Shown here piece after piece: positions 2,542-48,898 of a stretch of DNA of 64,000 bases (positions within the stretch are counted from its first letter, which is position 1; every line of letters begins with the position of its first letter). The notes beneath the pieces were generated by a model. It was not told where the DNA came from. It worked only from the letters and a program-made list of their open reading frames with translations, and did no database searches. The position numbers and the translations under genes were made by a program. The DNA comes from Candidatus Dojkabacteria bacterium (GTDB lineage: Bacteria > Patescibacteriota > Dojkabacteria > J137), in NCBI GenBank assembly GCA_025999215.1, contig AP024679.1:229645-293644 (forward strand), written 5' to 3'.

Positions 2542-2802
2542 GTGATATCTATACTCTCAATATCAAAATTCTTTGTTTTTACAGATTTAATTAAATTTGT
2601 AGGCAGAAGACATCGCAAAATCGGTCTTGCTAATGCAATAATCAAAGCACTTGAAGCAAAAGTAGTAGAGAAGAACTACGAGAAAGTTTATATACACACC
2701 GATTTATCAAAGCCAGATGTTTTGAGGTTTTGGAAAAATAGAAGTTACTCCACTTTTGAAACGGAGAGATATGTGGTTCATATGATTAAAGATCTTGCAT
2801 AG
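2542..2802 (+). CDS. GNAT-family acetyltransferase, C-terminal fragment (possibly truncated or frameshifted)
   Basis: RRHRKIGLANAII resembles the GNAT motif A (R/Q-x-x-G-x-G/A). At 86 aa it is too short for a full GNAT domain. Upstream sequence in other frames could hold the N-terminal part. Confidence 0.35.
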   Translation: MISILSISKFFVFTDLIKFVGRRHRKIGLANAIIKALEAKVVEKNYEKVYIHTDLSKPDVLRFWKNRSYSTFETERYVVHMIKDLA

Positions 2803-3820
2803 AACAAAAATTTTCAATTGTTTTTTTAGTTTTTGGCCAAAAATTAGTAATGCCGGCGTTTCTGCCGTAAAGTTTGTATCCAGCATTTACTGGTCTCCCA
2901 CCAATTTTATTGCCTGGTTCAGGTACTATAAAGCGTGTATTTCCTTTTAAATAGCTCACTAGAGCTAACACTATTCCATGTAAAAGCTCGTGAAATGTTA
3001 CAACTTGCCTGGTTGTATGAACGTAGACCTCTTGATATAAAAATTCTTTAACATTTTCAATTGTATATGATATCGCTTGTATGTTTTTTGTGTTTTTTGA
3101 ATTAAAATTGTGATGTTTAAAAGTTTCAAATACTACTTTATCCAAATAACCTCTGTATGGCTCTATTAGATCATATACAAGTGAAGGGTATTCTGTAGGT
3201 GTATGAATGAAGCCATGATATGGGCTTAAATTATGGTAATGAATCCATCTTAATATTATGCTAGATACAAACTTTGATACAGCATCAAGCGTTGCTCCGA
3301 TTAAATTTTCGGAATCTTTTTTTCTTCTAGTAGTATTGTAAAAACCAAGTGTTTTGTAGTATTTTTCCCAGTAATTTTTGGAGTGCCACGCTTCAACATT
3401 TACAATATCTTTAATATCAGTTAATCCTTTAAGGCTATAGGCAGGTTCATTAATTAGCCACTTCATAGAATTAAATTTTGCTTTGATTAGTTTTCTTGCA
3501 ATGTATGCTTTCTTTTTTTTATTTATTCTAAAAGTGATTTGTTTAGTCAAGATATCTTCCTTTCCTGTGGTAACATTTGGTGTTATAACTACAGCTCTAT
3601 GCATGTTTCTTCTGTGAATTACGATTGATACTTTTCTTTTTACACAGTTTTCTAAAAACCCTTGTTCTAGTGGGCATACACTTCCATAAAACATTATAGA
3701 GTGAATGTTATCATAGTTAATTTTTAAATCTCCTCCTTTATAGTGAAAGTGTACAGAATTTTTATTTGTAGCAATTTTATTTGTGTAAGGTAGCCATAAA
3801 TAATCTTTATTTTTTTTCAT
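2786..3820 (-). CDS. cas1: CRISPR-associated endonuclease Cas1 (belongs to the type V-D-like locus)
   Basis: 344 aa with a Cas1-like layout: a basic helix ARKLIKAKF, then NLIGATLDAVSK, then HGFIHT...SLVYDLIEPYR, which resembles the conserved Cas1 GF(L)H...DLMEPFR catalytic region. It sits directly next to the CRISPR array. Confidence 0.85.
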   Translation of the reverse strand: MKKNKDYLWLPYTNKIATNKNSVHFHYKGGDLKINYDNIHSIMFYGSVCPLEQGFLENCVKRKVSIVIHRRNMHRAVVITPNVTTGKEDILTKQITFRINKKKKAYIARKLIKAKFNSMKWLINEPAYSLKGLTDIKDIVNVEAWHSKNYWEKYYKTLGFYNTTRRKKDSENLIGATLDAVSKFVSSIILRWIHYHNLSPYHGFIHTPTEYPSLVYDLIEPYRGYLDKVVFETFKHHNFNSKNTKNIQAISYTIENVKEFLYQEVYVHTTRQVVTFHELLHGIVLALVSYLKGNTRFIVPEPGNKIGGRPVNAGYKLYGRNAGITNFWPKTKKTIENFCSMQDL

Positions 3821-3922
3821 GTTTAGTTTAAAATATCTACAAATAATTCTTTAATTAAGTATAGATTTTGCATATATATTATTGCACTTTAACATTAAAC
3901 ACAAATTAATTTCGGATAAAGT

Positions 3923-4468
3923 CACCGAAATTATTGGTGATGAAGGCAGTAAAAAGTCTTTCAGTTCACCGAAATTATTGGTGATGAAGGCGGCGATAAA
4001 GTAAGGTGGACACCGAAATTATTGGTGATGAAGGCCCTGATACTTCATCTTTCGCACCGAAATTATTGGTGATGAAGGCAAAAGGGTGTTAGATTTGAAC
4101 ACCGAAATTATTGGTGATGAAGGCAAAGTTGTAAAACTCATTCACCGAAATTATTGGTGATGAAGGCGAAAAATTCATACATTAGCACCGAAATTATTGG
4201 TGATGAAGGCAATTCCCGTAATTGTGTTCACCGAAATTATTGGTGATGAAGGCATAAAGCTGTTGCCGTTACACCGAAATTATTGGTGATGAAGGCGTAA
4301 AAGAAGGTATTTTGCACCGAAATTATTGGTGATGAAGGCTTGTCTGTCTCCGAAAGCGCACCGAAATTATTGGTGATGAAGGCACGCCGAGATGTGATTT
4401 CACCGAAATTATTGGTGATGAAGGCAAGGGCTTTCTTCAACATCACCAAAATTAAAAGGGTTTCCGGT
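3923..4468. CRISPR. CRISPR array: 12 x 25-nt repeats CACCGAAATTATTGGTGATGAAGGC plus one degenerate terminal repeat (4444-4468); 12 spacers of 17-20 nt
   Basis: I located every repeat by hand. Repeat starts are 3923, 3967, 4011, 4055, 4100, 4143, 4186, 4229, 4272, 4315, 4359 and 4401. Spacer lengths are 19, 19, 19, 20, 18, 18, 18, 18, 18, 19, 17 and 18 nt. The terminal copy CACCAAAATTAAAAGGGTTTCCGGT is degenerate. The repeat can form a CACC/GGTG mini-hairpin. Confidence 0.92.
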
Positions 4469-4531: not shown

Positions 4532-7500
4532 TTGTTAATGAAGAAAAAATATAAAAAACATAAGGGAATAACTGGATATACCCTTCACAATAAAAGACTT
4601 GTATACACTGGTAACCCAAGTATTCGATCAGTTAAATTACCTCTACTTTACAATGGTGATTCTCAGATTATTCAAAATTTCTATGAATCAATGATTCATG
4701 ATTACGAAAAGCTTAATGGCGCTATTAATATTTCAACTTTTATCAAAGATAAAAATATCTATAGCCTTATAGATTTTTGGTTAGATAGCCTGAGACTTGG
4801 AGTAATATTTGGAAGTTCTTTCAAAAGTTTACAAGGTACCATAAATGAAATTTTTGGTACACGCGGTCCTTATGATGAAATACTCAGTAAGATTCCTCAA
4901 GAATTTAGAAATGAAATAAACTTTGATATTTTTGTTAAAGAAATTTTGCAAAAACAAGGAATGAGAAGCACTTCAAGCAAGAACAGTTTTATAAAAAAAT
5001 TAAAAAGATCGTTTGGTATAGATGAAAATTCACCAGATGATCAAATCCCTACACAAAAAAAATTTGTGATGGATAAAATTAATAAAATTGCCGACAGAAT
5101 GTTCCCAGTTGATAACAATTATAAGGTAGTAGATATTCAAACTCAAAGATTAATATGGAAGGAAGAGTTAAATATAGAATTTTCTGATTCAGACAAATCT
5201 GACTATAAACCAACTTTTTACATCATTCCCAGTTTGGTTGATAAAAATACTAAAGATTTTTCTAAAATCTCGCCGATTGAGGTTTTAAATAAACTTAGAA
5301 ATTTTGTAAAAGAAACATGGAATTATTCCGAAAATGATGAAAAAGAAATAACTTCTCAAGTAAAAAGCCTTGCTGGATTGTCCGAAAACTTTAATGCATT
5401 TTCAAATTATTTCAACAATATTTTTAATTTGTTGTTTGATGGGAATATAGAAGCGGTAAAAGATAATTTAAATGCCGTTTTTGAACTTGAAAAAGCTTGG
5501 GGCGATAATATTGCTGATTTAGATGAAAGATTAAATTATTTGGCAAATCAGGCTCAAAAATTAGGAAAACCCAAAATGCAAAATAATTGGGATACATATA
5601 GATCAACTTTTGGAGGTAAACTTCAAAGCTGGTTTTCAAATCTTTTAAACCAAGAAAATGAAATTAGAAACCAGTTAGAAAAACATAAAAAAGAAATAGA
5701 AGTAGCTATAAAGTTTATAGAAAAGCATGATGAAAATTCTCCAATTCTTCAAGATTTGGATCAGTTAAAACGAATTGTTCAAGAAACTATAAACTCAGGA
5801 AATATATTCGAGGCAGAAACAAAAATTAACCTATACAGACAACTCCTTGCGAAGTTTCGCTCGGATTTTAATCAATTTTACCAACGGCACAACAAAGACG
5901 ATGATGACAATAAAGACTTAAAAATTAACAAGGCTTATCCTAATTTATTTAAAAATCTTAGAGTAACTCCAGAATTTTTTGGTGGCTCTAAATACAAAGA
6001 ATACTCAAAGTACGTAGATAAAACTTTTGATATCATCACACAAGGAATTAATATGGTATTGCAAATAGAAGAATCTTTGATTAATAAAATAGATAAAAAA
6101 AATCTCGAAATAGAAAAAGAATATTTTTGTAAACAATTACAATCTTTAAAAAATAAAATAACTACAGAATCTTTATTAGACAAAGATATCAGAATAGAAG
6201 TAGAATCAATTATCAAAAAATATTATGAGTCCAAAGATAAGTTGCCAGATAAATTTGAAGCTTTCTACATCAGTCCTTACTCCAGAGACAAAAGGCTTAA
6301 ATTGATACCGATTTCAGATGATTTGAATTTCGCTTCACAACTACTTGACATACATACCGGGTTAAACAAATTTGATGTTACTAAATTTGGTTTGGATTTT
6401 AAAAAATATTTATCTTACATTGAAATTTTAAAAATTAGATTTGGTTGGATTTTAAAAATGAGCCAAAATCCTACTATAGATGTTTCAGATCTTAAATATG
6501 ATTTATCGAACTTTGAAAATGCTCAAACTTATGTAGATTACTTCGGTAGCAAAATTGAAGATATTGGAAAATTTGTAAATAGCTTCATATTTAGCGAAAT
6601 AAAAGGTGCAATATCAAAAGCAACAAGAAAAGAATTTGTTGAAAGATATGTTATCCAATTTATGGACAGCGAACAAAGGGGCTTAAAATTAACTTATGTG
6701 CCTAAAATAATAAATTCAAAGCCTGTTTCACTACCTAAGACAGTAAGCTTACCTTCAAATGCTGATGAATTATTACAAGATCCCAAAAATGACAAATTGT
6801 TTTTTTATCCTCATAGATGGAAAGTTTTGTTTGACTTTGCATCAATTAAAACAGAATCAACAGAAAATAAACCTAATGCTTTGGTATTTACTTCAAAAAA
6901 CGATTTTAAAAATCCAAAAAAAGTCTATGTTGATGATGAAAATTCCTTTGATATTACTACATCAAAATACCAAATTCACTTTTTAGACAGGCTTCTTTAT
7001 CAAACAAAAAAATGGCGGCAAACTAAAGTGGAGTTTAGCTCGCCTTTTTTAATTTTGGAAGTTACAAGCAAAGTAACTTGGGATTCTCAAACAAAAAAAC
7101 CAATACTCAAACCCAAATCTAACTCAGCAAAACAAGGTGTTCGACTTTTTATAAATTACCCGATCAATTTAAAAACTTTACCAAAAAGCAAAGAAAACAA
7201 ACAAAGTAATATTTATTTGGGAATTGATACTGGAGAATACGGACTAGCTTGGGTAGCTGTTGATTTTTCAGAAAGATTAGCACCTAAAATTTTAGATAAA
7301 GGCTTTATTTATGACGATTCACTAAGAAAAATACAAGATAGAGTAGATGAGATTAAAGATGCTCAAGTTAAAGGAACATTTGGTATTCCTAGTACCAAAC
7401 TTGCCAGAATTAGACAACACACAATTACTACTTTGCGAAATAAAGTTCATGATTTACTATTAAAATACAATGCTAAAGTAATCTACGAGTACTCAATTTC

Positions 7501-8170
7501 CAATTTTGAAACAGGTAGCAATAGAGTTGCTAAAATTTATAGGAGTATTAAGGTCTCAGACGTTTATGCCGAAACAGAGGCTGACAAATTAGTTAAAAAA
7601 CTTGTTTGGGGTAATGCCAATTTGTTACTTGGTAATCATATTTCAGCTTATGCCACTAGCTACACTTGTAGCAAATGTAGAAGATCAATATATTTTGAAA
7701 AAGGTGATAAAAATATTGTAGAAGAAAAACAAGGTTCTTTGATTAAAGTAAAAATAAACGAAAATCTGTATGTTTGGGGATATTCAGCAGATAAAAATAT
7801 TCATAAAGGGAGTATTATAAACAGTAGAGAGCTAATTAATATTGTTAAAAAATATGCTAGACCACCACAAAACTCAGAAGCTTTAAAAAAATTTAATATA
7901 CAAGCCGAACAGTTTTATGAAAATAGAGGAGCCAGCGCAATATTCATTTGCCCTTATGATGACTGTAATCATTTATCGGATGCCGATATTCAGGCTGCGC
8001 TCAACATTGCTATAAAGGGTTATGTATCTGACCAAATAGGGAAGAAAAATACTGAAAAAGATGATGATAAAAAATTAAAGTTTTATTTAGAATATTTAGA
8101 TGAAATTAAAGAAAAACATCCGGTAATCTCATTAGAAGATGTAACAGAAAATCGGGGAGACAGGACTTGA
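4532..8170 (+). CDS. cas12d: Cas12-family type V effector, most consistent with Cas12d (CasY); 1212 aa (the ATG at 4538 is the likely true start)
   Basis: C-terminal third carries a split RuvC nuclease: RuvC-I LGIDTGEYGLAWVAV (D codon 7226-7228), RuvC-II KVIYEYSISNF (E codon 7487-7489), RuvC-III SDADIQAALNIAIKG (7979-8020). A roughly 150-aa insert lies between RuvC-II and RuvC-III and contains a CSKC (7667-7678) ... CPYDDC (7949-7966) zinc finger, which is the Cas12 Nuc/TNB arrangement. There is a large N-terminal region of about 880 aa with no recognisable motif. The neighbours are Cas1 and a short-spacer array, and there is no Cas2 or Cas4. Confidence 0.75.
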   Translation: MLMKKKYKKHKGITGYTLHNKRLVYTGNPSIRSVKLPLLYNGDSQIIQNFYESMIHDYEKLNGAINISTFIKDKNIYSLIDFWLDSLRLGVIFGSSFKSLQGTINEIFGTRGPYDEILSKIPQEFRNEINFDIFVKEILQKQGMRSTSSKNSFIKKLKRSFGIDENSPDDQIPTQKKFVMDKINKIADRMFPVDNNYKVVDIQTQRLIWKEELNIEFSDSDKSDYKPTFYIIPSLVDKNTKDFSKISPIEVLNKLRNFVKETWNYSENDEKEITSQVKSLAGLSENFNAFSNYFNNIFNLLFDGNIEAVKDNLNAVFELEKAWGDNIADLDERLNYLANQAQKLGKPKMQNNWDTYRSTFGGKLQSWFSNLLNQENEIRNQLEKHKKEIEVAIKFIEKHDENSPILQDLDQLKRIVQETINSGNIFEAETKINLYRQLLAKFRSDFNQFYQRHNKDDDDNKDLKINKAYPNLFKNLRVTPEFFGGSKYKEYSKYVDKTFDIITQGINMVLQIEESLINKIDKKNLEIEKEYFCKQLQSLKNKITTESLLDKDIRIEVESIIKKYYESKDKLPDKFEAFYISPYSRDKRLKLIPISDDLNFASQLLDIHTGLNKFDVTKFGLDFKKYLSYIEILKIRFGWILKMSQNPTIDVSDLKYDLSNFENAQTYVDYFGSKIEDIGKFVNSFIFSEIKGAISKATRKEFVERYVIQFMDSEQRGLKLTYVPKIINSKPVSLPKTVSLPSNADELLQDPKNDKLFFYPHRWKVLFDFASIKTESTENKPNALVFTSKNDFKNPKKVYVDDENSFDITTSKYQIHFLDRLLYQTKKWRQTKVEFSSPFLILEVTSKVTWDSQTKKPILKPKSNSAKQGVRLFINYPINLKTLPKSKENKQSNIYLGIDTGEYGLAWVAVDFSERLAPKILDKGFIYDDSLRKIQDRVDEIKDAQVKGTFGIPSTKLARIRQHTITTLRNKVHDLLLKYNAKVIYEYSISNFETGSNRVAKIYRSIKVSDVYAETEADKLVKKLVWGNANLLLGNHISAYATSYTCSKCRRSIYFEKGDKNIVEEKQGSLIKVKINENLYVWGYSADKNIHKGSIINSRELINIVKKYARPPQNSEALKKFNIQAEQFYENRGASAIFICPYDDCNHLSDADIQAALNIAIKGYVSDQIGKKNTEKDDDKKLKFYLEYLDEIKEKHPVISLEDVTENRGDRT

Positions 8171-8225
8171 ACCTGCAACCTCACGGTCCCAAACCGTGCG
8201 TTCTAGCCAATTGAACTACTCCCCG
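8152..8225 (-). tRNA. tRNA-Pro (anticodon UGG)
   Basis: The minus strand folds as a cloverleaf: acceptor CGGGGAG/CTCCCCG with the bacterial tRNA-Pro-specific C1:G72 pair and A73, D-stem GTTC/GAAC, anticodon stem CACGG/CCGTG, loop TTTGGGA (anticodon TGG), T-arm GCAGG-TTCAAGT-CCTGT. CCA is not encoded. The 3' part overlaps the last 19 nt of cas12d. Confidence 0.8.
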
Positions 8226-8278: not shown

Positions 8279-8656
8279 TTATTCCAGCAACTCTAACCCT
8301 CCGATATCACTATAAGTTTCTTTTCTGTTGGTTAGTAGTGGAGTAGAAGAGTTAATAGCTGTTGCCGCAACCAATGCATGGGCAAGAGTGATTTTTTCTT
8401 TTTTTTGGCGGATTATCCTTGCTGCAAGCAAAGCAATCTCTTCATTTATAACTTGGGTAACAAAATACTCTTTGAGAAAATTCATTACTTCTTTTTCTAA
8501 ATAATCTTCCGAAAAAGTCGTGCTCGCTAATATCTCGGTATATGTTGAAGGAGCAATCACCATGTCATATTTTTCGTAGGCATCAACCAGCTTACCTTCA
8601 CCAGTTTTCAAATATTCAATTATTACATCCGAATCTACTGTAATTGTATTTTTCAT
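8279..8656 (-). CDS. vapC: PIN-domain toxin (VapC-like)
   Basis: 125 aa. It has the N-terminal acidic motif ITVDSDVIIEYL and internal D/E residues typical of PIN nucleases, and it lies immediately downstream of a small antitoxin-like gene. Confidence 0.65.
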   Translation of the reverse strand: MKNTITVDSDVIIEYLKTGEGKLVDAYEKYDMVIAPSTYTEILASTTFSEDYLEKEVMNFLKEYFVTQVINEEIALLAARIIRQKKEKITLAHALVAATAINSSTPLLTNRKETYSDIGGLELLE

Positions 8657-10149: not shown

Positions 10150-11909
10150 TCGTTTTCTTTAACAATTTCTTGAATGATGGATGGATGAATGCGCCCTTCC
10201 AATAAAACCACATCTCCAAAATTTACATTTTCCCAAAACAGTTTGAGGGCCTCGTCAGGTTTGGAATACTTGAAAATTAAAGCGTTAGTGTTATTCTTTT
10301 TAGCTATTTCTGCAAGCAAACTATCTTCGGAAATTAAAATATCAAAATTTTTGCCAATTTTTTTAATTAACTCTGCGTAGGTTGCTTTTTTATACCTTCC
10401 TAGCTCATATATGCCTTTACAAATTATGATTCTTTGAGCTTTACTTTTTCTAATTTTGTTCATCATGTTTACTCCTGCTATGAAGCCATTGAATGAAGAA
10501 TTGTATGTATCGTTTATTATTGTGGTTTCATTGTCTCCTTTTAAAATTTCTTGTCTTGGTAATTTAATATTAAGGTCCTTCAAAGTATCTGCAATATCTT
10601 TTAAGGAAATATTTAATTCCATTGCTGTTGCAATACTTAACGCAAAATTCATAACTAAATGATCGGTATTGTGTTTTATGGTGAAGGTAACTTTTTCGTT
10701 TATTGTTTTAATGCTAAATCTGAGAGCTGTCTTGTTAGAGCTAACATTTTCAATTAACATTGCTGTTAATTCGGGGTCATTTTTCTTTATTGTGTTTTCA
10801 AAAATTTTGGCGCTTGTAGTTATGAAAATTGATTTTCCAGAAAAAAGTTCATGCATGTCTCTAATTAGCTCGTTGTCGGCGTTCAGTATTGCAACACCAT
10901 CTTTTTGTAGTCCTTGAACAATTTCAGATTTTGCTTCGAAAAGTTTTTGTTTTGATCCAAAAATTCCAATGTGTTGTCTGTCTAAGCTTGTTACGATTGA
11001 AATCTCAGGTGGAAAATGCTTGGTTACAGCTTTAATTTCTCCTTTTCTATATGCTCCCATTTCGGCTATGAAGATCTGAGTGTCTTTTTTGACTGATTGC
11101 AAAATTCCTTTTGCAATACCAACATCCGAGTTGAAATTGTATGGTGTTTTGGCAACTTTGTACTTTGAACTGAGTATTTCATAAAGAATTTCTTTGGTGG
11201 TTGTTTTGCCCTCGCTTCCAGTAATGCCAATTATTACAAGATTTGGGTTTGTTTTTCTTAGATACCTTTTTGCTTTATAAATTAATAATTGTCTCTTAAA
11301 TCGCGCAAAAGGGTAAGTTAAAGCTACACCTAAAGCAACCAAAAAAGGAGTAAACAAATCAATTAAAATACCAATAAGTGTTGCTAATCCCAAAAAAATA
11401 TATACGTCAGGGTAAATATAGTAACCAGATTCATTTTTGAAAGGTGTTACTTCCGATACAAAAGATTCATAAGAATCTAAATTTCTATCTAACACAGCAA
11501 AAGGTGCCGTAAAAACAAATGCGATAGTGATATAAAAAATACAAAGTATTCCAATAATCAATAAGTTTCTAGTATTTTTAAAACTAGGTCTCCTTGTTTT
11601 TTTGCTAAATAGCTGGTACACAAAATTTACTGATTGATCAAACCATATGGCGAAAGTCAAAGTGATACCAAGCATTGCTAGTAGGTCAAATTCAAAAAGC
11701 AAACTAACCATTGTGAACAACAAAAATTTAATTGCAATCATTCCAGCAGCTCTATTGTGTTCTTGTTGATCCCATCTGATGTACACCCAAAATCTATCCC
11801 AGCGATACTCTTTGAGTTGCCAGAGGTATAGATCCCACAAAACATTTTTAATGAAAACTATAAAAGCCGGCATCCAAAACAAAAAAGCTAATACTATAAA
11901 CTCTTTCAT
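10146..11909 (-). CDS. murF: Mur ligase family protein (MurF-like) with an N-terminal 5-TM membrane domain of about 220 aa
   Basis: P-loop GITGSEGKTTTKE and SLDRQHIGIFGS (compare the MurF AHLEGFGS motif). The N-terminal 220 residues are strongly hydrophobic with several predicted TM helices. The total is 587 aa against roughly 450 aa for a typical MurF. Confidence 0.6.
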   Translation of the reverse strand: MKEFIVLAFLFWMPAFIVFIKNVLWDLYLWQLKEYRWDRFWVYIRWDQQEHNRAAGMIAIKFLLFTMVSLLFEFDLLAMLGITLTFAIWFDQSVNFVYQLFSKKTRRPSFKNTRNLLIIGILCIFYITIAFVFTAPFAVLDRNLDSYESFVSEVTPFKNESGYYIYPDVYIFLGLATLIGILIDLFTPFLVALGVALTYPFARFKRQLLIYKAKRYLRKTNPNLVIIGITGSEGKTTTKEILYEILSSKYKVAKTPYNFNSDVGIAKGILQSVKKDTQIFIAEMGAYRKGEIKAVTKHFPPEISIVTSLDRQHIGIFGSKQKLFEAKSEIVQGLQKDGVAILNADNELIRDMHELFSGKSIFITTSAKIFENTIKKNDPELTAMLIENVSSNKTALRFSIKTINEKVTFTIKHNTDHLVMNFALSIATAMELNISLKDIADTLKDLNIKLPRQEILKGDNETTIINDTYNSSFNGFIAGVNMMNKIRKSKAQRIIICKGIYELGRYKKATYAELIKKIGKNFDILISEDSLLAEIAKKNNTNALIFKYSKPDEALKLFWENVNFGDVVLLEGRIHPSIIQEIVKENE

Positions 11910-38946: not shown

Positions 38947-40353
38947 ATGTATAACATATCTAACTTAGCTAAAAAACACAAATTCAATCTAATTTATGGG
39001 GTAAGCCTGTTTATTGCTTTTTCTGCAAGTATCTTGTTAGGTGTAAATATTGAAAATCAAACTCCAAAAGTTTTGGAGCTTTTTCAAATTAATGGCGATA
39101 TTGACAATGCGGAAATAGAAAATCAAAAATTAGTTTTTAAAACCAATAGATTAATTGATAAAAATACTCTTAACGCAATCAAGGTTGAACCAGCAGCAAA
39201 GTTTGGAGTAACATCATACGAAAACAAATTAAACATTAATTTTACAGAGCCATTAAAATCTAATCAGGTTTATGCCATAACTTTTGGCGAAGGTTTGCTT
39301 GATGTTTATGGAAATAGCTTTGAAGAAAAATCATTTGAGTTTAAAACTAAAAAACTTCAGCTTGCATTTATGGACCTTGATAGAAAGAAAATCAAAAAAA
39401 CAGATGTAGAGCTTACTAATTTTGAAACTTTGTTTGAAAGCGAGTATGAAATTAAGCGATTTATTGCGCGTGATGCAGGTTTAATTGTTCAAGCAGAAAG
39501 TGGTATTGGAAGTAGTATTTTCTTAGTTTCAGAGAATAATAAAATCAAAGTCGAGTTAAATCAAAAATTAGTGAACGCAATCACTGCTTCAGATAATTTT
39601 GAAAAAGTTTTTTTTGTGGCTGGAGATGCGAACTTCATTGATGGCCAAATTTATCCGACAGGTCTAAACTCCCTTTATGAGCTTGACTTTAAAACTGGAA
39701 TTTATAGAGAAGTACCGCTAGAAAAAAGTGTTTTTTGGGAAGTAGTTGATGCGCAAATTGTGCCTGATGGGTCAGCTATTTTAATTAAAAATTTTGAATC
39801 TAATTTTTTTCTTGTTAGTACTTCAAATTACAGTGATTACATTAACCTTGGTAAATATTTGGATGTAACTGATTTTAACCAGGTAGCCAAAAAATATCTT
39901 GCTGTAGAATCACCATTTGGGGCGAGCTTTGCAAATTTTCCTTACATAACCATAATTGACTCTAATTCTAACAAAACGGCAATAACCGATGGTGATGTGT
40001 ATGTTTTGGATCCTAAGTTTTGGGGAGCTGATTCTATAGTTTATTCAAGTAGAGTTGCTGAAACGGATTATTCGAGAGGGCTTTTTGGTATAAGTATTTT
40101 AAATTTGCAAAATAATGAAATAAAAGAGTTAATTAAAATTAACGATAAAAGTGTGGAATTGCCAATAGTAAGCCCTGATTTAAGATATATCGCAGTAGAA
40201 ATTTATAATAAGGATGATTTAAATAGCTTTGAAGGACTAAGAAATAAAGGCTTTCAGTCAAAGCCGGGAATAGCAGAAATTGGAATAATTGATATGGAAA
40301 ATAATCTTTTGATAAGTAAAGGGGTAGAGGGTATTGAAGCTCAATGGATGTAA
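38947..40353 (+). CDS. hypothetical membrane-anchored extracytoplasmic protein (Ig-like plus beta-propeller-like)
   Basis: N-terminal TM segment; no catalytic motif. Confidence 0.35.
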   Translation: MYNISNLAKKHKFNLIYGVSLFIAFSASILLGVNIENQTPKVLELFQINGDIDNAEIENQKLVFKTNRLIDKNTLNAIKVEPAAKFGVTSYENKLNINFTEPLKSNQVYAITFGEGLLDVYGNSFEEKSFEFKTKKLQLAFMDLDRKKIKKTDVELTNFETLFESEYEIKRFIARDAGLIVQAESGIGSSIFLVSENNKIKVELNQKLVNAITASDNFEKVFFVAGDANFIDGQIYPTGLNSLYELDFKTGIYREVPLEKSVFWEVVDAQIVPDGSAILIKNFESNFFLVSTSNYSDYINLGKYLDVTDFNQVAKKYLAVESPFGASFANFPYITIIDSNSNKTAITDGDVYVLDPKFWGADSIVYSSRVAETDYSRGLFGISILNLQNNEIKELIKINDKSVELPIVSPDLRYIAVEIYNKDDLNSFEGLRNKGFQSKPGIAEIGIIDMENNLLISKGVEGIEAQWM

Positions 40354-40579
40354 ATTTTTCAAAAAATATTTACTTAGCTAATCATATTTGGTATAAAGCA
40401 CTAGTTAAAAGGTTTACGTAAAGTGCAATTAGATTGTAGCATCAAAACATACATTAGCTATACTATACAAACTTTTACACACTTCTCTCTAAAATTTATA
40501 CTTAAAAAATATCTCAGAAAATTCCTTTGTAAGGTAATAAACTTCAAAGTATTTATTTATTATGAAAAATTAGTAAATT

Positions 40580-41035
40580 TTGAAACCTGAAAATGTATAC
40601 AACGTAACTAAATGGATAGTGTCGATTGCTGGAATAGTTATTTTGGGTTCGTTTGCTTTCTCTAAAGCCTCTAGGAAAGCTATTTGGGAAAGAGCGAAGG
40701 GAGTTTCAGAATTATCTGGAGAAAGAACTAGAAGAATGGAGTGCGCTCATTTAGATCATGATCAAACAAAAAATTATTATGACGACCCAAACAATGGATT
40801 GTTAGTTACAATTTTTGAACACCACGCTCATCATCTGTTTTTTGAAGGTCGAGCTTTTTTGATAGGTTTGAGTGAAGAAGCAAATGAAGTGGCAATACAA
40901 AAAACTTGGGACAGAATTTTTGAATTTGAAAAAAATATTTCCGAAGAAGAAGCTGAAATGAAAGTTCAAGAAGCGATAATAAGATGGGCTAATTATTACA
41001 GAGTCCGTTTTGTTAGGAGTTGCGAAGAAGCATAA
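40580..41035 (+). CDS. small membrane-anchored protein with a His-rich, HNH-like motif
   Basis: ECAHLDHD...N...HHAHH. It lies directly upstream of the type II array. Confidence 0.3.
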   Translation: MKPENVYNVTKWIVSIAGIVILGSFAFSKASRKAIWERAKGVSELSGERTRRMECAHLDHDQTKNYYDDPNNGLLVTIFEHHAHHLFFEGRAFLIGLSEEANEVAIQKTWDRIFEFEKNISEEEAEMKVQEAIIRWANYYRVRFVRSCEEA

Positions 41036-41104
41036 ATATTTGTAGTTGGAGTTTAGTTTTTTGGGATTAAGGATTAAATTTGAAAAACGGTAAAAACGGT
41101 AAGA

Positions 41105-41273
41105 GTCTTTATTCCCTTCTAATTCCCGATAGTGTATAATAGCGATAGCGATGCCATTATACACAAAACAGTCTTTATTCCCTTCTAATTCCCGATAGTG
41201 TATAATAAACGGAAAAACTAGAAAACTTTACGTTCTGTCTTTATTCCCTTCTAATTCCCGATAGTGTATAATA
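41105..41273. CRISPR. CRISPR array: 3 x 37-nt repeats GTCTTTATTCCCTTCTAATTCCCGATAGTGTATAATA, 2 spacers of 29 nt
   Basis: Repeats at 41105-41141, 41171-41207 and 41237-41273. Spacers at 41142-41170 and 41208-41236. Each repeat ends in TGTATAAT. Confidence 0.85.
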
Positions 41274-41276
41274 ACC

Positions 41277-41390
41277 AAAGGGAATAAAGCCTAATGATAA
41301 AGCAAAATAGAGCTTTTGGCTAAGTAAAAAATTAGAACAAAGTTAGTTGATCGGCCGAGTTTTTGGTTTCTTTTTGAGCAGGTTTGCCAA
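41277..41390 (+). ncRNA. candidate tracrRNA (model A): the anti-repeat AAAGGGAATAAAGCC lies 4 nt after the last repeat; extent unknown
   Basis: 41277-41291 is the reverse complement of repeat positions 3-14, with 12 of 13 matching. The TATAAT of the last repeat (41267-41272) would place a transcription start at about 41279-41281. Confidence 0.3.
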
Positions 41391-41658
41391 GCAAAATGTA
41401 CATTTTTTCGTATTGTCTTTCGGTGATGATGAGCGCTCGGATTGCGCCTTTTTGAGGTACATTTTTTTGCAGTCTGTCTATGTGTTTTTTTGTGCCGTCC
41501 AATCCTTTACATATGCGTGAATATACAGAATACTGAAGCATAAAGTAACCGTCATTCAGTAAAAACTTTCGAAATTTTGTATATTTTTTCCGCAATCCCG
41601 GATTATTTACCGGTAAATCAAAAAATACAAGTATGCGCATATATTTTTGATTATTCAT
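41332..41658 (-). CDS. cas2: CRISPR-associated endoribonuclease Cas2
   Basis: MRILVFFDLP...LQYSVYSR matches the Cas2 signature. Confidence 0.85.
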   Translation of the reverse strand: MNNQKYMRILVFFDLPVNNPGLRKKYTKFRKFLLNDGYFMLQYSVYSRICKGLDGTKKHIDRLQKNVPQKGAIRALIITERQYEKMYILLGKPAQKETKNSADQLTLF

Positions 41659-42562
41659 AACAAATACGCTTTATCCTATTAAAACTTGGTAGTTCCAACA
41701 TTTTGGAATTTTTATTTTGAATACACGAAACTAGGCTTTTGACTACATGCTCGGTGGCAGTCATCAATTGCGTTTTTTGATTTTTAATAATTACTTCAAT
41801 TTCAAAAATTTGCATTAAATGAGCTTTAGTTTGTGGCGTTAGATTAGAATCTTCTTGTTTGAGGTTGAGAGTGCGTATCAAAAAATAATCGGCAATTGGT
41901 CTAAAAGGTTCAATTAAGTCATCAGCCAAATTAAAGTTGTTGTATTCGTTGCAGTGTTTGATGCCTATACTAGGAATAAAACCATAAGCGCTACAATGCC
42001 TTGCTAGATTGGATCTGATTAGGGCGTAGGTAAAATTAAGGGCAGAATTTATAAAAATATCTTTATCTCGTGTAAAATTTTTCCCAAAAATAGTAGTGAA
42101 ATATATGCCAGATGCTCTTCCTTCTATGTTTGATTTGTCTGATGATTTTACTTGTTTGCTTAGGGTCAATAGAGTGTTACTCTCTAGAGTAAAATTAAGC
42201 AATTTGAGCACTTTGGCTTGATTGCGAATTTTTTGAGAGACTATCTGTTGCCACAATTGATTTTTGAATGGTTGAGTTAGAGAAACTTGCTCCATTATTC
42301 TTTTGCTTTGTCGTGTATGGTTTTGATAAGGTAAAATTATAGCTTCGGGTAAGTGTTTGCCATTGCATACAATTGCGCATACTTTGTTTTGAGTAAGTGA
42401 AACTATCAGGTTAGAGGTTAGAAGTGATTGGCTATCTATCACTAAAGTGTCTATATCTTCTATTGGAATTTCAAATTTTTCTCCATCTTTTTCAATCACT
42501 ATTTGAGAATTTTTTTGGCTTAGTTTGGTGTTGCTTGAGATTAGAATATTTCTAAATCCCAT
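41651..42562 (-). CDS. cas1: CRISPR-associated Cas1 (type II)
   Basis: 303 aa with Cas1 motifs including YGFIPS...DLIEPFRP; it overlaps cas2. Confidence 0.85.
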   Translation of the reverse strand: MGFRNILISSNTKLSQKNSQIVIEKDGEKFEIPIEDIDTLVIDSQSLLTSNLIVSLTQNKVCAIVCNGKHLPEAIILPYQNHTRQSKRIMEQVSLTQPFKNQLWQQIVSQKIRNQAKVLKLLNFTLESNTLLTLSKQVKSSDKSNIEGRASGIYFTTIFGKNFTRDKDIFINSALNFTYALIRSNLARHCSAYGFIPSIGIKHCNEYNNFNLADDLIEPFRPIADYFLIRTLNLKQEDSNLTPQTKAHLMQIFEIEVIIKNQKTQLMTATEHVVKSLVSCIQNKNSKMLELPSFNRIKRICYE

Positions 42563-42567
42563 TGATT

Positions 42568-45500
42568 TTACTTTAATATAATTGGTTGCCTTGTTTCTTT
42601 ATGTACTTTGTATAGCCTTCCTAGTACATCTACTTGATATTTTTCAATCAAATATAAATTTTTGGATCCTTTCCTAATGTATCCTTTGGAGCCCACATTG
42701 TCGTGCTTTACAAAACTTATTCTTGCATTTGAGGAGTCTACACCAATGAAATATCCACTCAGGTAATAATCATCATCTTTCTTAACTTTTATTTTGATAA
42801 AATCATTTTTGTAAAGGCTAAATTGAAACTCATATGTATCATCAAGTTCTTGCCAGTCGCTCTTTGGAGTATTGATAGTAATGACCTTATTTGGGAGTTC
42901 TCCTGACATAATTTCTGGAAGATAAATTGGCACAAGATAGTATTTTCCATCTTTTTTGAAAACATCCGTTCTCACAATGCGAGAGTTAAGTACATATCCA
43001 TATCCATTTCCTCTTTTTAATTTAACGGTATTGTTTTCAACAGTTTCGCTAATGTACGAAAAAATAGGGCTTTTTTTGTTGGGATCTTTCCAGGTTAATG
43101 GTTCATCTGGTTCTAATTTTCGTTTTTCATTTATAGCTTTGTTTACTGCTTTGTAATATGCTGGATCAGTGTTTTTATAAATTTTTTCAAGAGAATTATT
43201 TAAATCTTTAGATTCTTTTGATAGGTCAATTTGCTTTCTAGTACCTAGTATACTTAAACCTTTCTCGGTTACTCCTCTTTGACTATAAACTGTTTCAAGG
43301 TGCGCTGCGCCTCTAATTTTTCTTTTTGGCTCACGAGATACAATCAAAGGTTTAATTTTGTTTTTAATATCTTTATACAGTTTAAGAAAATCATCAGATT
43401 TTTTATATTTCCAAAACTCTGAGTTTATTTCGCCATTTTGCTCTTTAGAATCCATCTTTTGCGGTTTTTGTGTACCAAAAACTCTTATCAACACATCGTT
43501 TCTAAAGTTAGGCCAAGGATTGGGGAAAGATTTTTTTCGTTTATAAAAATTTTCTTTGTCGTTTTTGTGCCATTCATTCATTTTTTGAATCATCCATGGA
43601 GTGGTAATGCCTACTAGTGTGGCATCAACTGCATGGTGCCTTGCATTTAAATCACGATTTTTTGGTAATCCATACATTTTGAGCAAGTAGTTAGTCATTG
43701 CACCGGTTATCACGTAGACTTTTCGTTTTTTTCCAGGCGTTTCTCTAAATTTTAAATTGTTTTCTACGTAATTTTTGATAGTTCTTGCCGCAAATTGAGT
43801 ATCATTTAAATTTCTATTCAAGAACTCTTCCGGAGGAACATCTTTTGGTAGAGTAGTGTTTAATATTTTATTTTTTTTGGATGTATTAATGTTAAGGCTA
43901 TTTACAAAATTTACAAAGTTTTGCCATTGTTCAGAATTTTCATCTCCTCCAAAATATTCAAAAGGGGTACTGTTTCCTTTTTTTCTATTTACACTGGTTA
44001 ATACCAAAATTTTATTGTTTCTTGAATCATCAAATGATCTGCTGTAAGGTAAAGCGTGATCAATTTCAACGTAGTTATCTTCAAAGAGTTTTTCTGCAGG
44101 AATTTCTTTACCAGACAATAAACATTTGCCTAGCTGTTCTTCTCGTAATTCGTATTTAAGTATATCGTGAGGAGTTACTTCTTTAGTTTTGAAATAGTCA
44201 AAGTTTTCTTCTAAAAATTTCTTTATTTTTTCTTTTCCTTTGGTTATTTCTTCTAAATTTTTTGTTATTTTTCTTTTTTCATCTTCACTTTTTGCCAAAT
44301 CTCTAGCAAGCTCAATATTAACAAAACTTGGGCTTCCATATTTATCTACTATGGCGTTAATAACTTTTCTTGTTTGCGATATTACTTTTTTGACTACAGG
44401 ATTGGTAACTGATGAACTCGTAAATGGCGGGAGTTTTGTAAAATTTCTTTTAAGTTTTAAGGTTTCATTAGGATACTTACTGCGCAAAATTTCTTCTGCA
44501 TGGGTGTAGTTTTCTCCTTCTTTTCGAATTATTTGAGCTAATTCTTTGTAAGCTTTGACTGAAAGATTTGCAAAGCCTGATAAGTTCGGTCCGTAATTTA
44601 CCAAAGTTTCAACTTCTTGAGGACTTAGTTGTGAAATTCCCTCAAAATAATCTTTCAAATCTTCATCAGTTTTTCTAACGGTTAAGCCATACACAATTTG
44701 TTCATAAAGATTAAAATCATTTGTGATTTTTTCCCAAAGATCACCATTTCTGTCTTTAATAGCTTTTCGAAGTTTGTGATATCCACTTAAAGGTTTTAAA
44801 CCTTTGATCTTTTCTTTTTCTTTGCTTGCATCAACATCTCTAAAAGAGTACTCTTCGGGAATTTCTGCCCACTTTCTAATGTGATAATAACTTATGTTTG
44901 AAGAGTGGGAAAATATATGATCATAAATCTTATCAAGTTCGCTTTGATTCAAAGGTCTTAACTCTCCTGTTTTTGTGTTAAAAACTTTAATGTTATTTTG
45001 CAGAAAGTTAAAAAATCTAAATATTTCAAAATTTATTGAGTGTACAGGTGCTCTGCTTTCATTTGGGAAAATACCACACTTTCCAACCATTTTTTCAATG
45101 TCATCTGTTTGTGCAAAAGGCCTTTGATAATTAAAAATCTCCAAAATTTTATTTTCAAAATCTTCAGTGATCTTTTTGTTTCCAAACTTTTTTTGTTTTT
45201 TTTAAATTTCTTTGAGTTCATCTTCAAGCATTTTTCGAGTTACCAGTCTTTTGTAGTTTCCTCTTCTATTTCTCTTTTGAAACTTAAACTCTTCATCTTT
45301 ATAAAACATTTCTCCAACTGTTCTGTAATTTTTTAAAAGTTCTTGGTTTTTTGATATATTCTCTGCTAGTTTTCCGCCTTCTTCTCCTTCTAATGCAATA
45401 TTTTTACGGTTTGATTTAAACCCTCTCCTTTTGACTATGTGTATCAAAACTCGAGCTAATTCTTCATCAGTTAAGCGCTCATCTAACGCCTTGCAACGAA

Positions 45501-45813
45501 GGAACCATGGATCATGTTTTTTGATATCAAAATTGTCAAATTCCGTGGGGAAACCAAAGCTATCTAGAGCTTTTTTAAGTTTTTTTATTCTGTATTTTCT
45601 TCTTCTTACTACTCGCCTTGATGATCGGGCTTCTCTTCTCACTTGATTTGGGTGTTTATCTCCTGCATTTACTCCAGCTTCAAAAACTCTTACTCCAGTA
45701 TCAATCAACCTCACTGGACGATAATATTCATTTTCTTTCTGTATTTCTATTACAGCCCAACCAATTGTCGCAGACCCTATATCAAGGCCAAGCGTATACT
45801 GTAAATCTTTCAT
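42568..45813 (-). CDS. cas9: Cas9 (type II-C-like, about 1078 aa), reading frame interrupted by one in-frame TAA at 45202-45204
   Basis: N-terminal fragment (45202..45813) has RuvC-I LGLDIGSATIGWAVIE and the Arg-rich bridge helix. C-terminal fragment (42568..45144) has the HNH motif (DHALPYSRSFDDSRNNKILV), RuvC-II (KVYVITGAMTNYL) and RuvC-III (HHAVDATLVG). Both fragments are in the same frame. Confidence 0.85.
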
Positions 45814-45909
45814 TTTTTTTATTTTTTAATTCTCTACAAAAGTAGAGATGAGTTTTCTAAAGGATCTCAAACCTTTCGGCTTATTGCCTTATCTTTATAA
45901 CCTTAATAA

Positions 45910-45930
45910 CTTTATTCCCGATAGTGTATA
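45910..45930 (+). repeat. solitary degenerate type II repeat, missing the internal 11 nt TTCTAATTCCC
   Basis: CTTTATTCCC-GATAGTGTATA equals repeat positions 3-12 joined to 24-34. It lies 97 bp upstream of the cas9 start. Confidence 0.6.
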
Positions 45931-45978
45931 TTCAAGCTATAAAGATTCAGTTTAATTCTACAAAACTTATGAAAATAT

Positions 45979-46075
45979 TTCAAGGAAAATATTTCTAAGA
46001 TCTTCCTAAAATTTCATCCAAGCTGTTGGGATCGGGTTCAGAAAATTTTAAATGCAAAGTATTGTTTACTCTATA
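45979..46075 (+). repeat. direct repeat copy A (duplicate of the 3' end of ORF 47229..48725), downstream of pyrD
   Basis: About 75 nt are near-identical to 47213-47291 (AAATATTTCTAAGATCTTCC[T/C]AAAATTTCATCCAAGCTGTTGGGATC[G/A]GGTTCAGAAAATTT), with weaker similarity for another 20 nt or so. Confidence 0.75.
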
Positions 46076-46086
46076 TTTCCTATATT

Positions 46087-47127
46087 TCAAGAATTAAATT
46101 TTTTTAGCAATAATTTATTTATTTTCTTCACCAAAGCTGGCCCTTCGTAAACAAATCCTGTATAAATTTGTACTAAATCGGCCCCTGCATTTATTTTTTC
46201 TAAAGCATCTTGTGGAGATGTTATACCTCCCACTCCAATTACTGGAAATGCGTTTTTTGATTTTCGCTTCAAGTATTTTATTACTTCTGTTGAGTTTTTA
46301 AATATAGGTTTACCACTCAATCCACCTCCACCAATTTTATTAACGACTTTGTGGTGTGTGATCAATCTATACCGGTTTGTGGTTGTATTGGTGGCAATTA
46401 CACCATCAATTTTTGTTTCTTTGACAATCTCAATAATATCGTCTAACTGTTGATGATTTAAATCTAGTGAAATTTTCAATAATATAGGTTTTCGTTTAGA
46501 TTTTTGGTTGTTTTCTTGTTGTAGCCGATTTAACAGATCTGTGAGAGGTTTTTTATTTTGCAATTTGCGGAGGTTTGGAGTATTGGGTGAACTTACATTT
46601 ACCACAAAGTAATCAACATACATGAAAAGCTCGTTAAAGCATTTCAAATAATCTTCGGCAGCTTTTTCGTTTGGAGTAAATTTATTTTTTCCAATATTTC
46701 CGCCTATTACAATGTCTGTTTTTCTCTTTTTTAAATTCTCCACAACTTTTAATACTCCATCGTTATTGAAACCCATTCGATTAATCAGCGCTTTGTCTTT
46801 TGGTAAAAAGAAAAGTCGTGGCTTAGGATTTCCTGGTTGAGGTTTTGGTGTAACAGTACCGATTTCTATAAAACCGAATCCAAAGTTTGAAAATTCATTG
46901 TAAAAGCAAGCATTTTTATCAAATCCAGCTGCCAAACCTATTGGATTTTTAAAATGTAATCCGAAGAGTTGTCTCTCAAGGGCAGGAGAATTAACTGTAT
47001 AGATTTGTTGTGTTACTTTTTTAAATAATGGGATTTTGAATAAAGTTTTTATTATAACTACAAAAACATAAATTGCCTTTTCAGGTGGTAGTAATGATAA
47101 ACTTAATCTTATGATTATTTTATGCAT
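46087..47127 (-). CDS. pyrD: dihydroorotate dehydrogenase (quinone-type, membrane-anchored)
   Basis: N-terminal hydrophobic anchor, [10 protein letters not shown], and NIGKNKFTP...GGLSG motifs. Confidence 0.85.
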
Positions 47128-47212
47128 TTAGTTTATTCTATCAAAAATCAAAACTTAATATAAAAATATAAATGATAGTTTGATTAATATACTTTTGGTA
47201 AACTTTTGATGT

Positions 47213-47300
47213 TTTTCAAAAAATATTTCTAAGATCTTCCCAAAATTTCATCCAAGCTGTTGGGATCAGGTTCAGAAAATTTAGAGTGTAAATTTGCAAA
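47213..47300 (+). repeat. direct repeat copy B (the coding 3' end of ORF 47229..48725)
   Basis: See copy A. Confidence 0.75.
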
Positions 47301-48898
47301 AAAAGAATTATCTTTTCGTAGCTCTTCAAGCATCAAATAAACCCAATATTTGTAACCAAAATCAGCACCATGCCCCAATCTTAGCGAAGTTAAATAAACC
47401 CATTGTGTTGGTGGAGCGCTCATGTGCATTTTGGCCGAATGCGCAAGAGGTAGAATGTTGTAGATAAATGTTCTATCAGCTTTTGGTTCAAGGAAGGTAT
47501 CAATTTTACTGTAAAATTCCCAGACTTTTTTGTAATAAGTTTCAAAAGTTTCTATCCATTTTGGAACTAAATCAGAAAGCGCGCGAGTTTTGACTAACTG
47601 AAAATTAATATGGAAACCTTCTTTTAAAATGCTTTCAACATCAGAGCTTTCAATCATATGAATTAACCTACCTGTAGCTCTTTGTCTATTCAAATCTCTA
47701 ATGTATGCAACTGAAGTTTTTGATACTAGTATTAGTTGCCCTCTCACATCACCAATTCTTTGCATTAGGTTGTGATGATTGTGATCTTTGAGAATTATTT
47801 CACCTATTTTGCTTTTTGTTTTTTTGTCTAACTTAGATATAAATTTTAAAATTTCATTTTCATTAACACTCGGATACAAAACAGAAATGTAGCTTAGCGC
47901 CAAAGCTTCCCCAGCATCAAAATTACTGATTTTGTAAACTAACGTTTCTGATCCTTGGATTTGATCTTTAGGTTTTAGAATTTTTTTAATATTAGTGTTT
48001 TTTTCAAGAAAATCTTTGAGTTCTTGTAAGTTTTTAGGTACTGTTTTGGTACCTTCCGCATACTTTGTCAAACCTTCAAAGTTTAATTGAATTTTTTCTC
48101 CCTCAGCATATCGTCTAATATTAAGCAATGTTTCAATTTGTGTTGCTAGAGCTTGCATTCGAACATCATTTTGATGATCTCTTAATTGAGCAATATTTGT
48201 AATGTGTTGTCTTACTGTTGTGTTTATAACCATCGCCGTGCGAGCGCCTATAGGAATAAACCCTCTTGATATATCAAGCACTCTCGCGTTTAATGTTGAT
48301 TGAGTAAGTTTTTGAGGATGGTTTTGTTTTTGAATTTCATCGTTTATAAATTTTTTTAATTTATCAGTTAATAGTTTGGTCCAAATTTCATAGTTTTCAG
48401 CCAAGAATTTTTGTAAATCATCCCATTCAGCTTCTAATTCTTCTAACTTTTCAGCATCAAACAACTCAGAGTTTATTAGAGATCTTAACTTAGGAATTTT
48501 AAACTCTCCAATTTTAACGTACCTGGTAGACAATTCTTGTCCGGATTGTCTTGAATCAATGTTAAATATGGTTAGAGCTTCTTCCATGGTAATGCCTTCA
48601 ATCGATAAGAGTAGTGGGGTAGCAAGGTCAGCCACACTTGCATGCCCGTAATTCACAAATACTTTCGCTAATTTTTGAGCAGCAAAGTCAGGATCATTTT
48701 TGGAGTGTTCGTTTATTTCTCGCATGATTTCAAGCAGTCCACCGCCATTTCGAGAATATCTGGCGCCGGCCCATGCGGTGATGTTGTAAAAATCTTTTGT
48801 GTTCGTTTGGTATCGGGAGTCCTAAGTGTAATGTTTGTTTCGGTGTCAGTTAAACTTAAGATGGTAAAATTAAATTTATCTGGATCGCCAATTTCCAA
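47229..48898 (-). CDS. ThyX-like (flavin-dependent thymidylate synthase fold) protein, unusually long and possibly two tandem domains; the N-terminus probably continues in ORF 48713..48898 across a frameshift
   Basis: FNIDSRQSGQELSTRYVKIGEFKIPK parallels the ThyX block [25 protein letters not shown], but the RHR motif is not conserved. Confidence 0.3.

Follow-up and report, generated by a model that had tools for sequence, protein, structure and literature searches.

The 64-kb stretch of DNA from a Candidatus Dojkabacteria bacterium analysed here (hereafter the window; positions count from its first nucleotide) carries a CRISPR-Cas locus of type II-C in which a single stop codon interrupts cas9. 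Along the minus strand the locus runs from a promoter-like site through a candidate trans-activating CRISPR RNA (tracrRNA), cas9, cas1 and cas2 to an array of three repeats and two spacers. The cas9 gene (42568..45813, minus strand) is one reading frame of 1081 sense codons and one internal TAA. It is followed by cas1 (41651..42562, minus strand), whose 303-residue product is of the type II (NMENI) subtype and matches PF01867 and TIGR03639 (cas1_NMENI, 286.7 bits against a cut-off of 120). An 8-nt overlap joins cas1 to cas2 (41332..41658, minus strand), which encodes 108 residues and matches PF09827 and, at 94.8 bits, TIGR01573. An initial annotation, made from the sequence alone, had listed cas9, cas1, cas2 and an array, and all of these parts lie where it placed them, on the minus strand. 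It had also noted the absence of csn2 and cas4, with the reservation that either gene just outside the region would change the subtype; scans of the open reading frames (ORFs) in 38947-48725 against Pfam, NCBIfam, PADLOC and PHROGs returned neither Csn2 nor Cas4, and neither gene lies within 5 kb.

The Cas9 product is recognized along its entire length. The equivalog model TIGR01865 (cut-off 100 bits) matches the 203-residue piece ahead of the stop over profile positions 1-216 (184.7 bits) and the 877-codon piece behind it over positions 218-1070 of 1070 (528.7 bits), so that the gene is collinear with the model and the stop takes the place of one residue. The catalytic motifs GLDIGSATIGW (with Asp11), IELAR, EIDHALPYSRS...NNK and HHAVDA are intact and align with the motifs of solved Cas9s, and PF13395 (HNH_4) and RuvC_III are matched at 3e-21 and 4e-11, respectively. 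The Cas9 domains and motifs read by the initial annotation are thereby borne out, while its joined length of about 1078 residues becomes 1081 sense codons plus the internal stop. Solved chains can be aligned with the joined protein from end to end, the best being 9ar4, 8jtj and 8uza (E-values of 5e-183 to 7e-179, about 36% identity). The 14 best solved Cas9 sequences span E-values from 5e-183 to about 1e-148, with 6jdq at about 1e-162, and other chains score far lower, among them 5axw (1.6e-55) and 6rj9 (labelled St1Cas9; 3.8e-47). The structure search gives no organism; we take the 8uza group to be Geobacillus-type Cas9s (GeoCas9), 6jdq to be Nme1Cas9 and several of the top matches to be II-C enzymes, and we assume that the entries at about 1e-47 to 1e-56, which include 5axw and 6rj9, are II-A enzymes. 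The nearest Cas9 in a collection of 5.8 billion proteins is about 40% identical.

The interrupting codon is a TAA at codon 204 (45202..45204, minus strand), which stands where an A8 run begins, the context being GAA ATT TAA AAA AAA CAA AAA AAG. It divides ORFs of 203 and 858 residues that share one frame, and the two cas9 fragments of the initial annotation are therefore not the product of a frameshift: there is one frame with a single TAA at 45204..45202. Both a frameshift and a pair of separate genes were rejected, given the common frame and the collinearity with the Cas9 model. The break falls within the recognition (REC) lobe and not at a domain boundary. Among 119 homologues the corresponding column holds Phe in 107, Leu in 11 and Val in one, a sense residue in every case. 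Because the five closest relatives shown all have Leu at this column, one TTA-to-TAA change suffices and would explain the stop. A recoded TAA or an alternative genetic code was also rejected: TAA terminates 33 of the 46 long ORFs in the window, TGA and TAG are used too, and the only two other same-frame ORF pairs (a DUF1980 protein with a Big_5 protein, and an alpha/beta hydrolase with a Mur ligase) are each complete, separate genes. Nor did the window yield a suppressor tRNA.

The same codon is present in a second assembly. The source metagenome-assembled genome (MAG), AP024679, is circular and finished, belongs to order J137 of class Dojkabacteria and was assembled with metaFlye from PacBio high-fidelity (HiFi) reads; its supplementary table gives a figure of 10.8, which we read as coverage (PMC9671151). 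In GenBank, the 858-residue product is an exact match to the hypothetical protein KatS3mg085_268 of a Candidatus Dojkabacteria bacterium, on an 862,240-bp contig. A 4841-bp Logan contig from run DRR290133 (L004) is 100% identical to window positions 41393..46233, TAA included, and continues unbroken through the stop, although it was produced by a different, k-mer-based assembler. An error in homopolymer length would shift the frame, and the frame is preserved. An assembly artefact is thus made unlikely by the identical Logan contig together with the HiFi data. On these sequence grounds the dominant genotype most probably does carry the stop, and full-length Cas9 is most probably not made in the sequenced population. 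We regard recent inactivation of the locus in that population as probable. It would be a very recent event, given a single lesion among the 1081 codons of cas9, identical repeats and undamaged cas1 and cas2 genes.

The array (41105..41272) holds three identical repeats, GTCTTTATTCCCTTCTAATTCCCGATAGTGTATAAT, starting at 41105, 41171 and 41237, and its CRISPR RNA (crRNA) sense is the plus strand. The copies agree over 37-38 nt at a period of 66, which leaves two spacers of 29-30 nt; here the repeat is taken as 36 nt, since each of the three copies is followed by an A. Chance cannot account for three exact copies spaced at a fixed period beside cas2. Spacer 1, AGCGATAGCGATGCCATTATACACAAAACA (41141..41170, plus strand), and the cas2-proximal spacer 2, AAACGGAAAAACTAGAAAACTTTACGTTCT (41207..41236, plus strand), are both 30 nt in this division, and if acquisition takes place at the cas2-proximal repeat, as it does in other II-C systems, spacer 2 is presumably the newer and spacer 1 the older. 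The last six bases of every repeat, read on the plus strand, are a perfect TATAAT directly preceded by TG, and repeats of related II-C loci end in TAnAAT-like hexamers. A sigma-70 scan that requires a -35 hexamer does not call these repeat-end sites. Repeats of type II-C are reported to contain promoters of their own, with new spacers added at the last repeat (PMC12080349). By analogy, the crRNAs most likely arise from promoters within the repeats and run antisense to the cas genes. The initial annotation had placed a three-repeat array with 37-nt repeats at the end of the operon; three repeats do follow cas2, but by II-C analogy they would be read in the opposite direction and would not end the operon transcriptionally.

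Spacer matching, a check that the initial annotation had proposed, gave no target for either spacer. With up to 8 mismatches allowed, neither matches any other part of the window; neither has a match in IMG/VR (full 30-mers and 3' 20-mers), and comparison with INPHARED phages gave chance-level matches only (E >= 0.6). Spacer 2 has no match in GTDB species genomes, and the 3' 23-mer of spacer 1 has none in JGI metagenomes, where the exact repeat is likewise absent from the contigs. With no protospacer found, no protospacer adjacent motif (PAM) can be proposed. Five nucleotides past the cas2-proximal repeat lies AAGGGAATAAAG (41278..41289, plus strand), a 12-nt perfect inverted copy of repeat positions 3-14, a match length reached by none of 300 random 45-mers from the locus. 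A 12-bp hairpin formed by the copy could sequester the tracrRNA-pairing part of the last repeat. As a general leader feature of II-C loci it was rejected, for only L002 among 61 related loci has anything similar (8 nt), and most of them have an ordinary terminator at this place. A small array is also seen in L001, a contig from SRR17161168 that encodes one of the two closest Cas9 relatives (40% identity): it has a single repeat behind cas2 (10380-10414) and no spacers, with cas9 and tracrRNA intact, and is another minimal or decaying array in this Cas9 lineage.

A candidate tracrRNA (45822..45948, minus strand), which the initial annotation had not listed, precedes cas9 in the same direction. 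It comprises an anti-repeat and two hairpins, one nexus-like and one terminal; its 5' end is set from a promoter-like site, and its 3' end is uncertain. That site (45955..45983, minus strand) reads TTGAAA, 17 nt, TAGAAT, matches the consensus at 10 of 12 positions and lies about 7 nt before the proposed start. A partial same-strand copy of the repeat is visible upstream of cas9 at 45914-45935. The anti-repeat (45890..45931, minus strand) pairs with positions 1-35 of the crRNA-sense repeat in a duplex whose upper stem has 17 bp and whose lower stem has about 12 bp, with an internal loop or bulge between them. When the plus-strand repeat was folded against 60-nt windows of the 64 kb on both strands (6394 windows), this duplex, at -36.2 kcal/mol, was the best outside the array (mean -9.1, standard deviation 4.0, next best -26.4). 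The next-best site, near 51921 on the plus strand, is probably a chance pairing among so many windows. The nexus-like hairpin GGC-AAUAA-GCC (45878..45888, minus strand) lies within AAGGCAAUAAGCCG; in the corresponding position, the upstream RNAs of an Oceanobacillus locus (L015) and a Bacilli locus (L026) have the nearly identical UAAGGCAUUAAGCCG. The pairing, the location and the nexus motif of the candidate are those expected of a type II anti-repeat RNA. Because the anti-repeat is on the minus strand with the hairpins 3' of it, the crRNAs would be plus-strand RNAs.

The terminal hairpin, UCUCUAC-UUUU-GUAGAGA (45831..45848, minus strand), has a 7-bp stem and ends 17 nt before the cas9 ATG. 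At this point relatives have a G+C-rich hairpin and then a U-tract. From this arrangement the candidate tracrRNA and cas9 may be co-transcribed, with transcription reading through the hairpin. The genuine cas9 start lies in an A-rich stretch without a Shine-Dalgarno sequence. Among the 61 related II-C loci used for repeat and anti-repeat comparison, the best anti-repeat lies just upstream of cas9 in 51 and is co-directional with it in 23, a set that includes the closest relatives L002 and L003, Saccharibacteria L006, Patescibacteria L017 and Geobacillus L008.

For genomic relatives we used the 80 best Cas9 matches, from loci with cas9-cas1-cas2; they are 29-37% identical and belong to Geobacillus, Bacillus, Clostridia, Neisseria, Pasteurellaceae, Nitrosomonadales and several MAGs from the candidate phyla radiation (CPR). 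The array lies downstream of the cas genes in 68 of 85 loci (these 80, four others and the window). Read on the cas9-sense strand, the repeats of the relatives start ATTnTA... and end ...GGGA(A/G)CTA(T/C)AAC, and the repeat of the window belongs to this family. Taken together, the structure matches, the NMENI Cas1, the presence of cas2, the lack of csn2 and cas4, the repeat family and the layout agree on type II-C, and on this sequence evidence the locus is almost certainly of that subtype. The II-C assignment of the initial annotation is thus supported by the Cas9 model, the structures, the Cas1 subtype, the repeat family and the position of the tracrRNA candidate.

Placement in a Cas9 phylogeny had been suggested alongside that assignment. 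In a rough neighbour-joining tree without support values, the Cas9 of the window forms a long branch, sister to a small uncultured clade that includes a Saccharibacteria MAG. It lies outside the Bacillota group and apart from both a Patescibacteria/Paceibacterota pair and the other Dojkabacteria Cas9 (L081). The distribution of these sequences suggests that CPR lineages acquired Cas9 several times independently. The loci of the nearest relatives, L005 (which equals L003) and L001/L002, adjoin housekeeping genes: uvrA, an aminoacyl-tRNA synthetase gene, the genes of ribosomal proteins L21 and L27, and pth. A 4.8-kb contig with one nearest relative is binned as "uncultured Bacteriovorax sp.", and the true host of the clade is uncertain.

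We infer transcription, processing and cleavage by analogy with the II-C systems of Neisseria and Campylobacter. In such a scheme the TATAAT box at the end of each repeat would act as a -10 element and start short crRNAs inside the downstream spacer, which would run into the next repeat on the plus strand, antisense to the cas genes. Repeat 1 would drive the crRNA of spacer 1 and repeat 2, and repeat 2 that of spacer 2 and repeat 3, with the repeat at 41105 as the "extra" repeat. The repeat part of each crRNA would pair with the anti-repeat of the tracrRNA, and the dual RNA would load Cas9, whose HNH and RuvC sites would cut matching DNA next to a PAM. Cas1-Cas2 would insert new spacers at the cas2-proximal repeat.

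The locus most closely recalls the II-C systems of the Bacillota thermophiles. Geobacillus-type Cas9s align over the full length, have about 1080-1090 residues and share the domain order; their tracrRNA lies upstream of cas9 and co-directional with it, cas1, cas2 and the array follow, and the 36-nt repeat is of the same family. The window differs in the sequence of its Cas9 (36% identical to that of the Geobacillus jurassicus locus L008), its CPR host, its premature stop and its tracrRNA, which lacks a U-tract terminator. The Neisseria meningitidis and Campylobacter jejuni systems, whose crRNAs arise from repeat-internal promoters and need no processing, share the 36-nt repeat starting GT..T...TCCC with a -10-like end, the 30-nt spacers, the array downstream of cas2 and the absence of csn2 and cas4. 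The Cas9s of Neisseria loci are 33% identical to that of the window. In 28 Neisseria-like relatives the upstream anti-repeat is inverted relative to the array, whereas that of the window is co-directional. In the repeat of the window the TG abuts the -10 hexamer; in Neisseria and Campylobacter it stands one base further upstream.

Within the CPR, the Cas9s of MAGs assigned to Saccharibacteria (L006), Patescibacteria (L017), Paceibacterota (P0033) and Dojkabacteria SKW36 (L081) are II-C-like and 31-37% identical to that of the window, and L006 and L017 share the cas9-cas1-cas2-array layout and an upstream, co-directional anti-repeat. These Cas9s are scattered in the rough tree, where the Dojkabacteria sequence L081 is not the nearest to that of the window, which suggests separate acquisitions. 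CRISPR-Cas systems were reported in 1.4% of high-quality CPR drafts by Burstein et al. 2016 (PMC4742961) and in 2.4% as quoted by Chen et al. 2019 (PMC6509639). Hot-spring Roizmanbacteria, also of the CPR, combine CasY/Cas12d with III-A and/or I-B systems, some of them degenerate, and CasY was inferred to be their main defence (PMC6509639). They resemble the present host as small CPR genomes in which CasY/Cas12d is joined by a second or third system. Their partners are of types III-A and I-B, and searching that paper by term turned up none of type II; here the partner is II-C and the host is Dojkabacteria J137.

The Cas12d system of the window, which the initial annotation had placed 33 kb from the type II locus and assigned to type V-D, is confirmed by its effector, Cas1 and array. 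The effector gene cas12d (4532..8170) is an ORF of 1212 residues that matches NF033951 at 1132 bits (cut-off 250) and PADLOC Cas12d at 1e-181. The Cas1 of this system (2786..3820) has 344 residues, and the array (3922-4427) has about 12 repeats at a period of 43, read as a repeat of about 26 nt with spacers of about 17 nt. The view that the two Cas1 proteins (344 and 303 residues) are distinct and the adaptation modules independent is supported by their alignment at only 29% identity over 83 residues and by the different repeat and spacer lengths of the II-C and V-D systems. With about 12 repeats, the Cas12d system is the likelier working defence; the II-C locus is a second CRISPR-Cas locus, though perhaps not one that works. 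The 3' end of cas12d overlaps an opposite-strand tRNA-Pro(TGG) gene (8152-8225) by about 19 nt. Beyond cas12d and this tRNA lies a weak VapC-like toxin ORF (8279-8656, minus strand; NF047959 at an E-value of 6e-07, below cut-off), which adjoins an ORF of 120 residues.

Taken as a whole, we consider it fairly probable that this is a canonical II-C locus with a recently inactivated cas9. Several points weigh against this reading. At 10.8x coverage, and at the boundary of a T-run and an A-run, a consensus error or a mixed TTA/TAA population is possible; the Logan contig presumably derives from the same read set as the MAG; and no relative more than 40% identical was found that could show an intact cas9 allele. 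On the RNA side, a promoter scan gave 20 sites against 19.4 in shuffled sequence, so that the promoter-like site is suggestive only, no U-tract follows the terminal hairpin, the tracrRNA candidate alone folds no better than shuffled sequence (z = -0.92), and no Rfam family, tracrRNA or other, is found in 40900-46150. The system could accordingly be functional, the TAA being an artefact of assembly or consensus, or else an allele that is transient or confined to a minority, with most cells making a 1081-residue Cas9 that has Leu or Phe at position 204. The lone lesion in an otherwise open frame, the integrity of the catalytic motifs, cas1, cas2, tracrRNA and repeats, the modest coverage and the T3/A8 homopolymer junction at codon 204 would all fit such a history. 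We nevertheless think it unlikely: substitutions are rare in HiFi reads, the k-mer assembly gives the identical sequence in a contig continuous across the site, the frame is kept where a homopolymer length error would have shifted it, and the array has only two spacers, for which no targets were found.

Cas9 might instead be made despite a real stop, through low-level bypass (readthrough, or a +1 and then a -1 slip) or as split halves that reassemble on the guide RNA, residues 1-203 supplying RuvC-I, the bridge helix and the beginning of REC, with a C-terminal piece restarted at TTG 45144 or the next ATG. Engineered split Cas9 enzymes can work, the stop sits in the very slippery A-rich context AUU UAA AAA AAA CAA AAA AAG, with CA A AAA AAG after it, and internal restarts are conceivable, the true cas9 start also being in an A-rich stretch and without a Shine-Dalgarno sequence. 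Such production is very unlikely, for UAA is the preferred and most efficient stop of this genome, relatives have neither a split nor a stop here (a sense residue in 119 of 119), the break is internal to the REC lobe, and no conservation points to a programmed arrangement. If it did occur, the cell would hold a naturally attenuated or split Cas9 beside Cas12d in a minimal CPR background. Nor does an older, decaying remnant, partly kept for example for Cas1-Cas2 or small RNAs, account well for the locus, even with its very small array, its disrupted cas9 and the precedent of degenerate CPR systems (PMC6509639). Long decay predicts several lesions and diverged repeats, where we see one stop and three identical repeats next to intact cas1, cas2 and tracrRNA; moreover, the V-D system owns a Cas1, and its repeat and spacer lengths differ. 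We judge this history highly improbable.

At about 31% G+C the II-C locus does not differ from its surroundings, so that base composition gives no sign of recent horizontal arrival. One flank holds pyrD and a ThyX-like gene, and the other an unclassified ORF of 151 residues and a Big_5 protein gene. A 73-nt direct repeat with 92% identity (45986-46058 and 47220-47292) encloses only pyrD (46087..47127), which encodes a quinone-dependent dihydroorotate dehydrogenase and is itself unusual for a CPR bacterium. The copy at 47220-47292 forms the genuine 3' end of the ThyX-like gene, which encodes 498 residues; the copy at 45986-46058, outside any ORF and directly upstream of the promoter-like site of the tracrRNA candidate, still encodes ...FSEPDPNSLDEILGRS*. 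From the sequence, pyrD looks as if it had been inserted into the end of the thyX-like gene. On the other side, the 151-residue ORF (40580-41035, plus strand) is convergent with the cas operon and reads toward the array. Its product combines a hydrophobic helix at the N terminus with an HNH-like motif, ECAHLDHD...N...EHHAHH, and has no family match in Pfam, NCBIfam, PADLOC or PHROGs. Transcription from this ORF could extend into the extra repeat at 41105.

The locus is an undescribed example of the well-known type II-C and not a new kind, and it leaves the understanding of that subtype unchanged; its GenBank record simply lacks the annotation. The paper on the source MAG does not discuss CRISPR content and mentions CRISPR only as an assembly difficulty (PMC9671151). 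Literature searches found no pair of Cas9 and Cas12d in Dojkabacteria. Two class 2 systems in one CPR genome are uncommon, but of a kind already known, and a finished 862-kb Dojkabacteria genome from hot-spring sediment with both Cas12d and Cas9 offers a clean example of the rare CRISPR systems of the CPR. As a deep branch from a warm-spring organism, a repaired version of this Cas9 could interest enzyme prospectors. For the organism itself, the single nonsense codon would give a snapshot of CRISPR loss beside a second system that probably took over.

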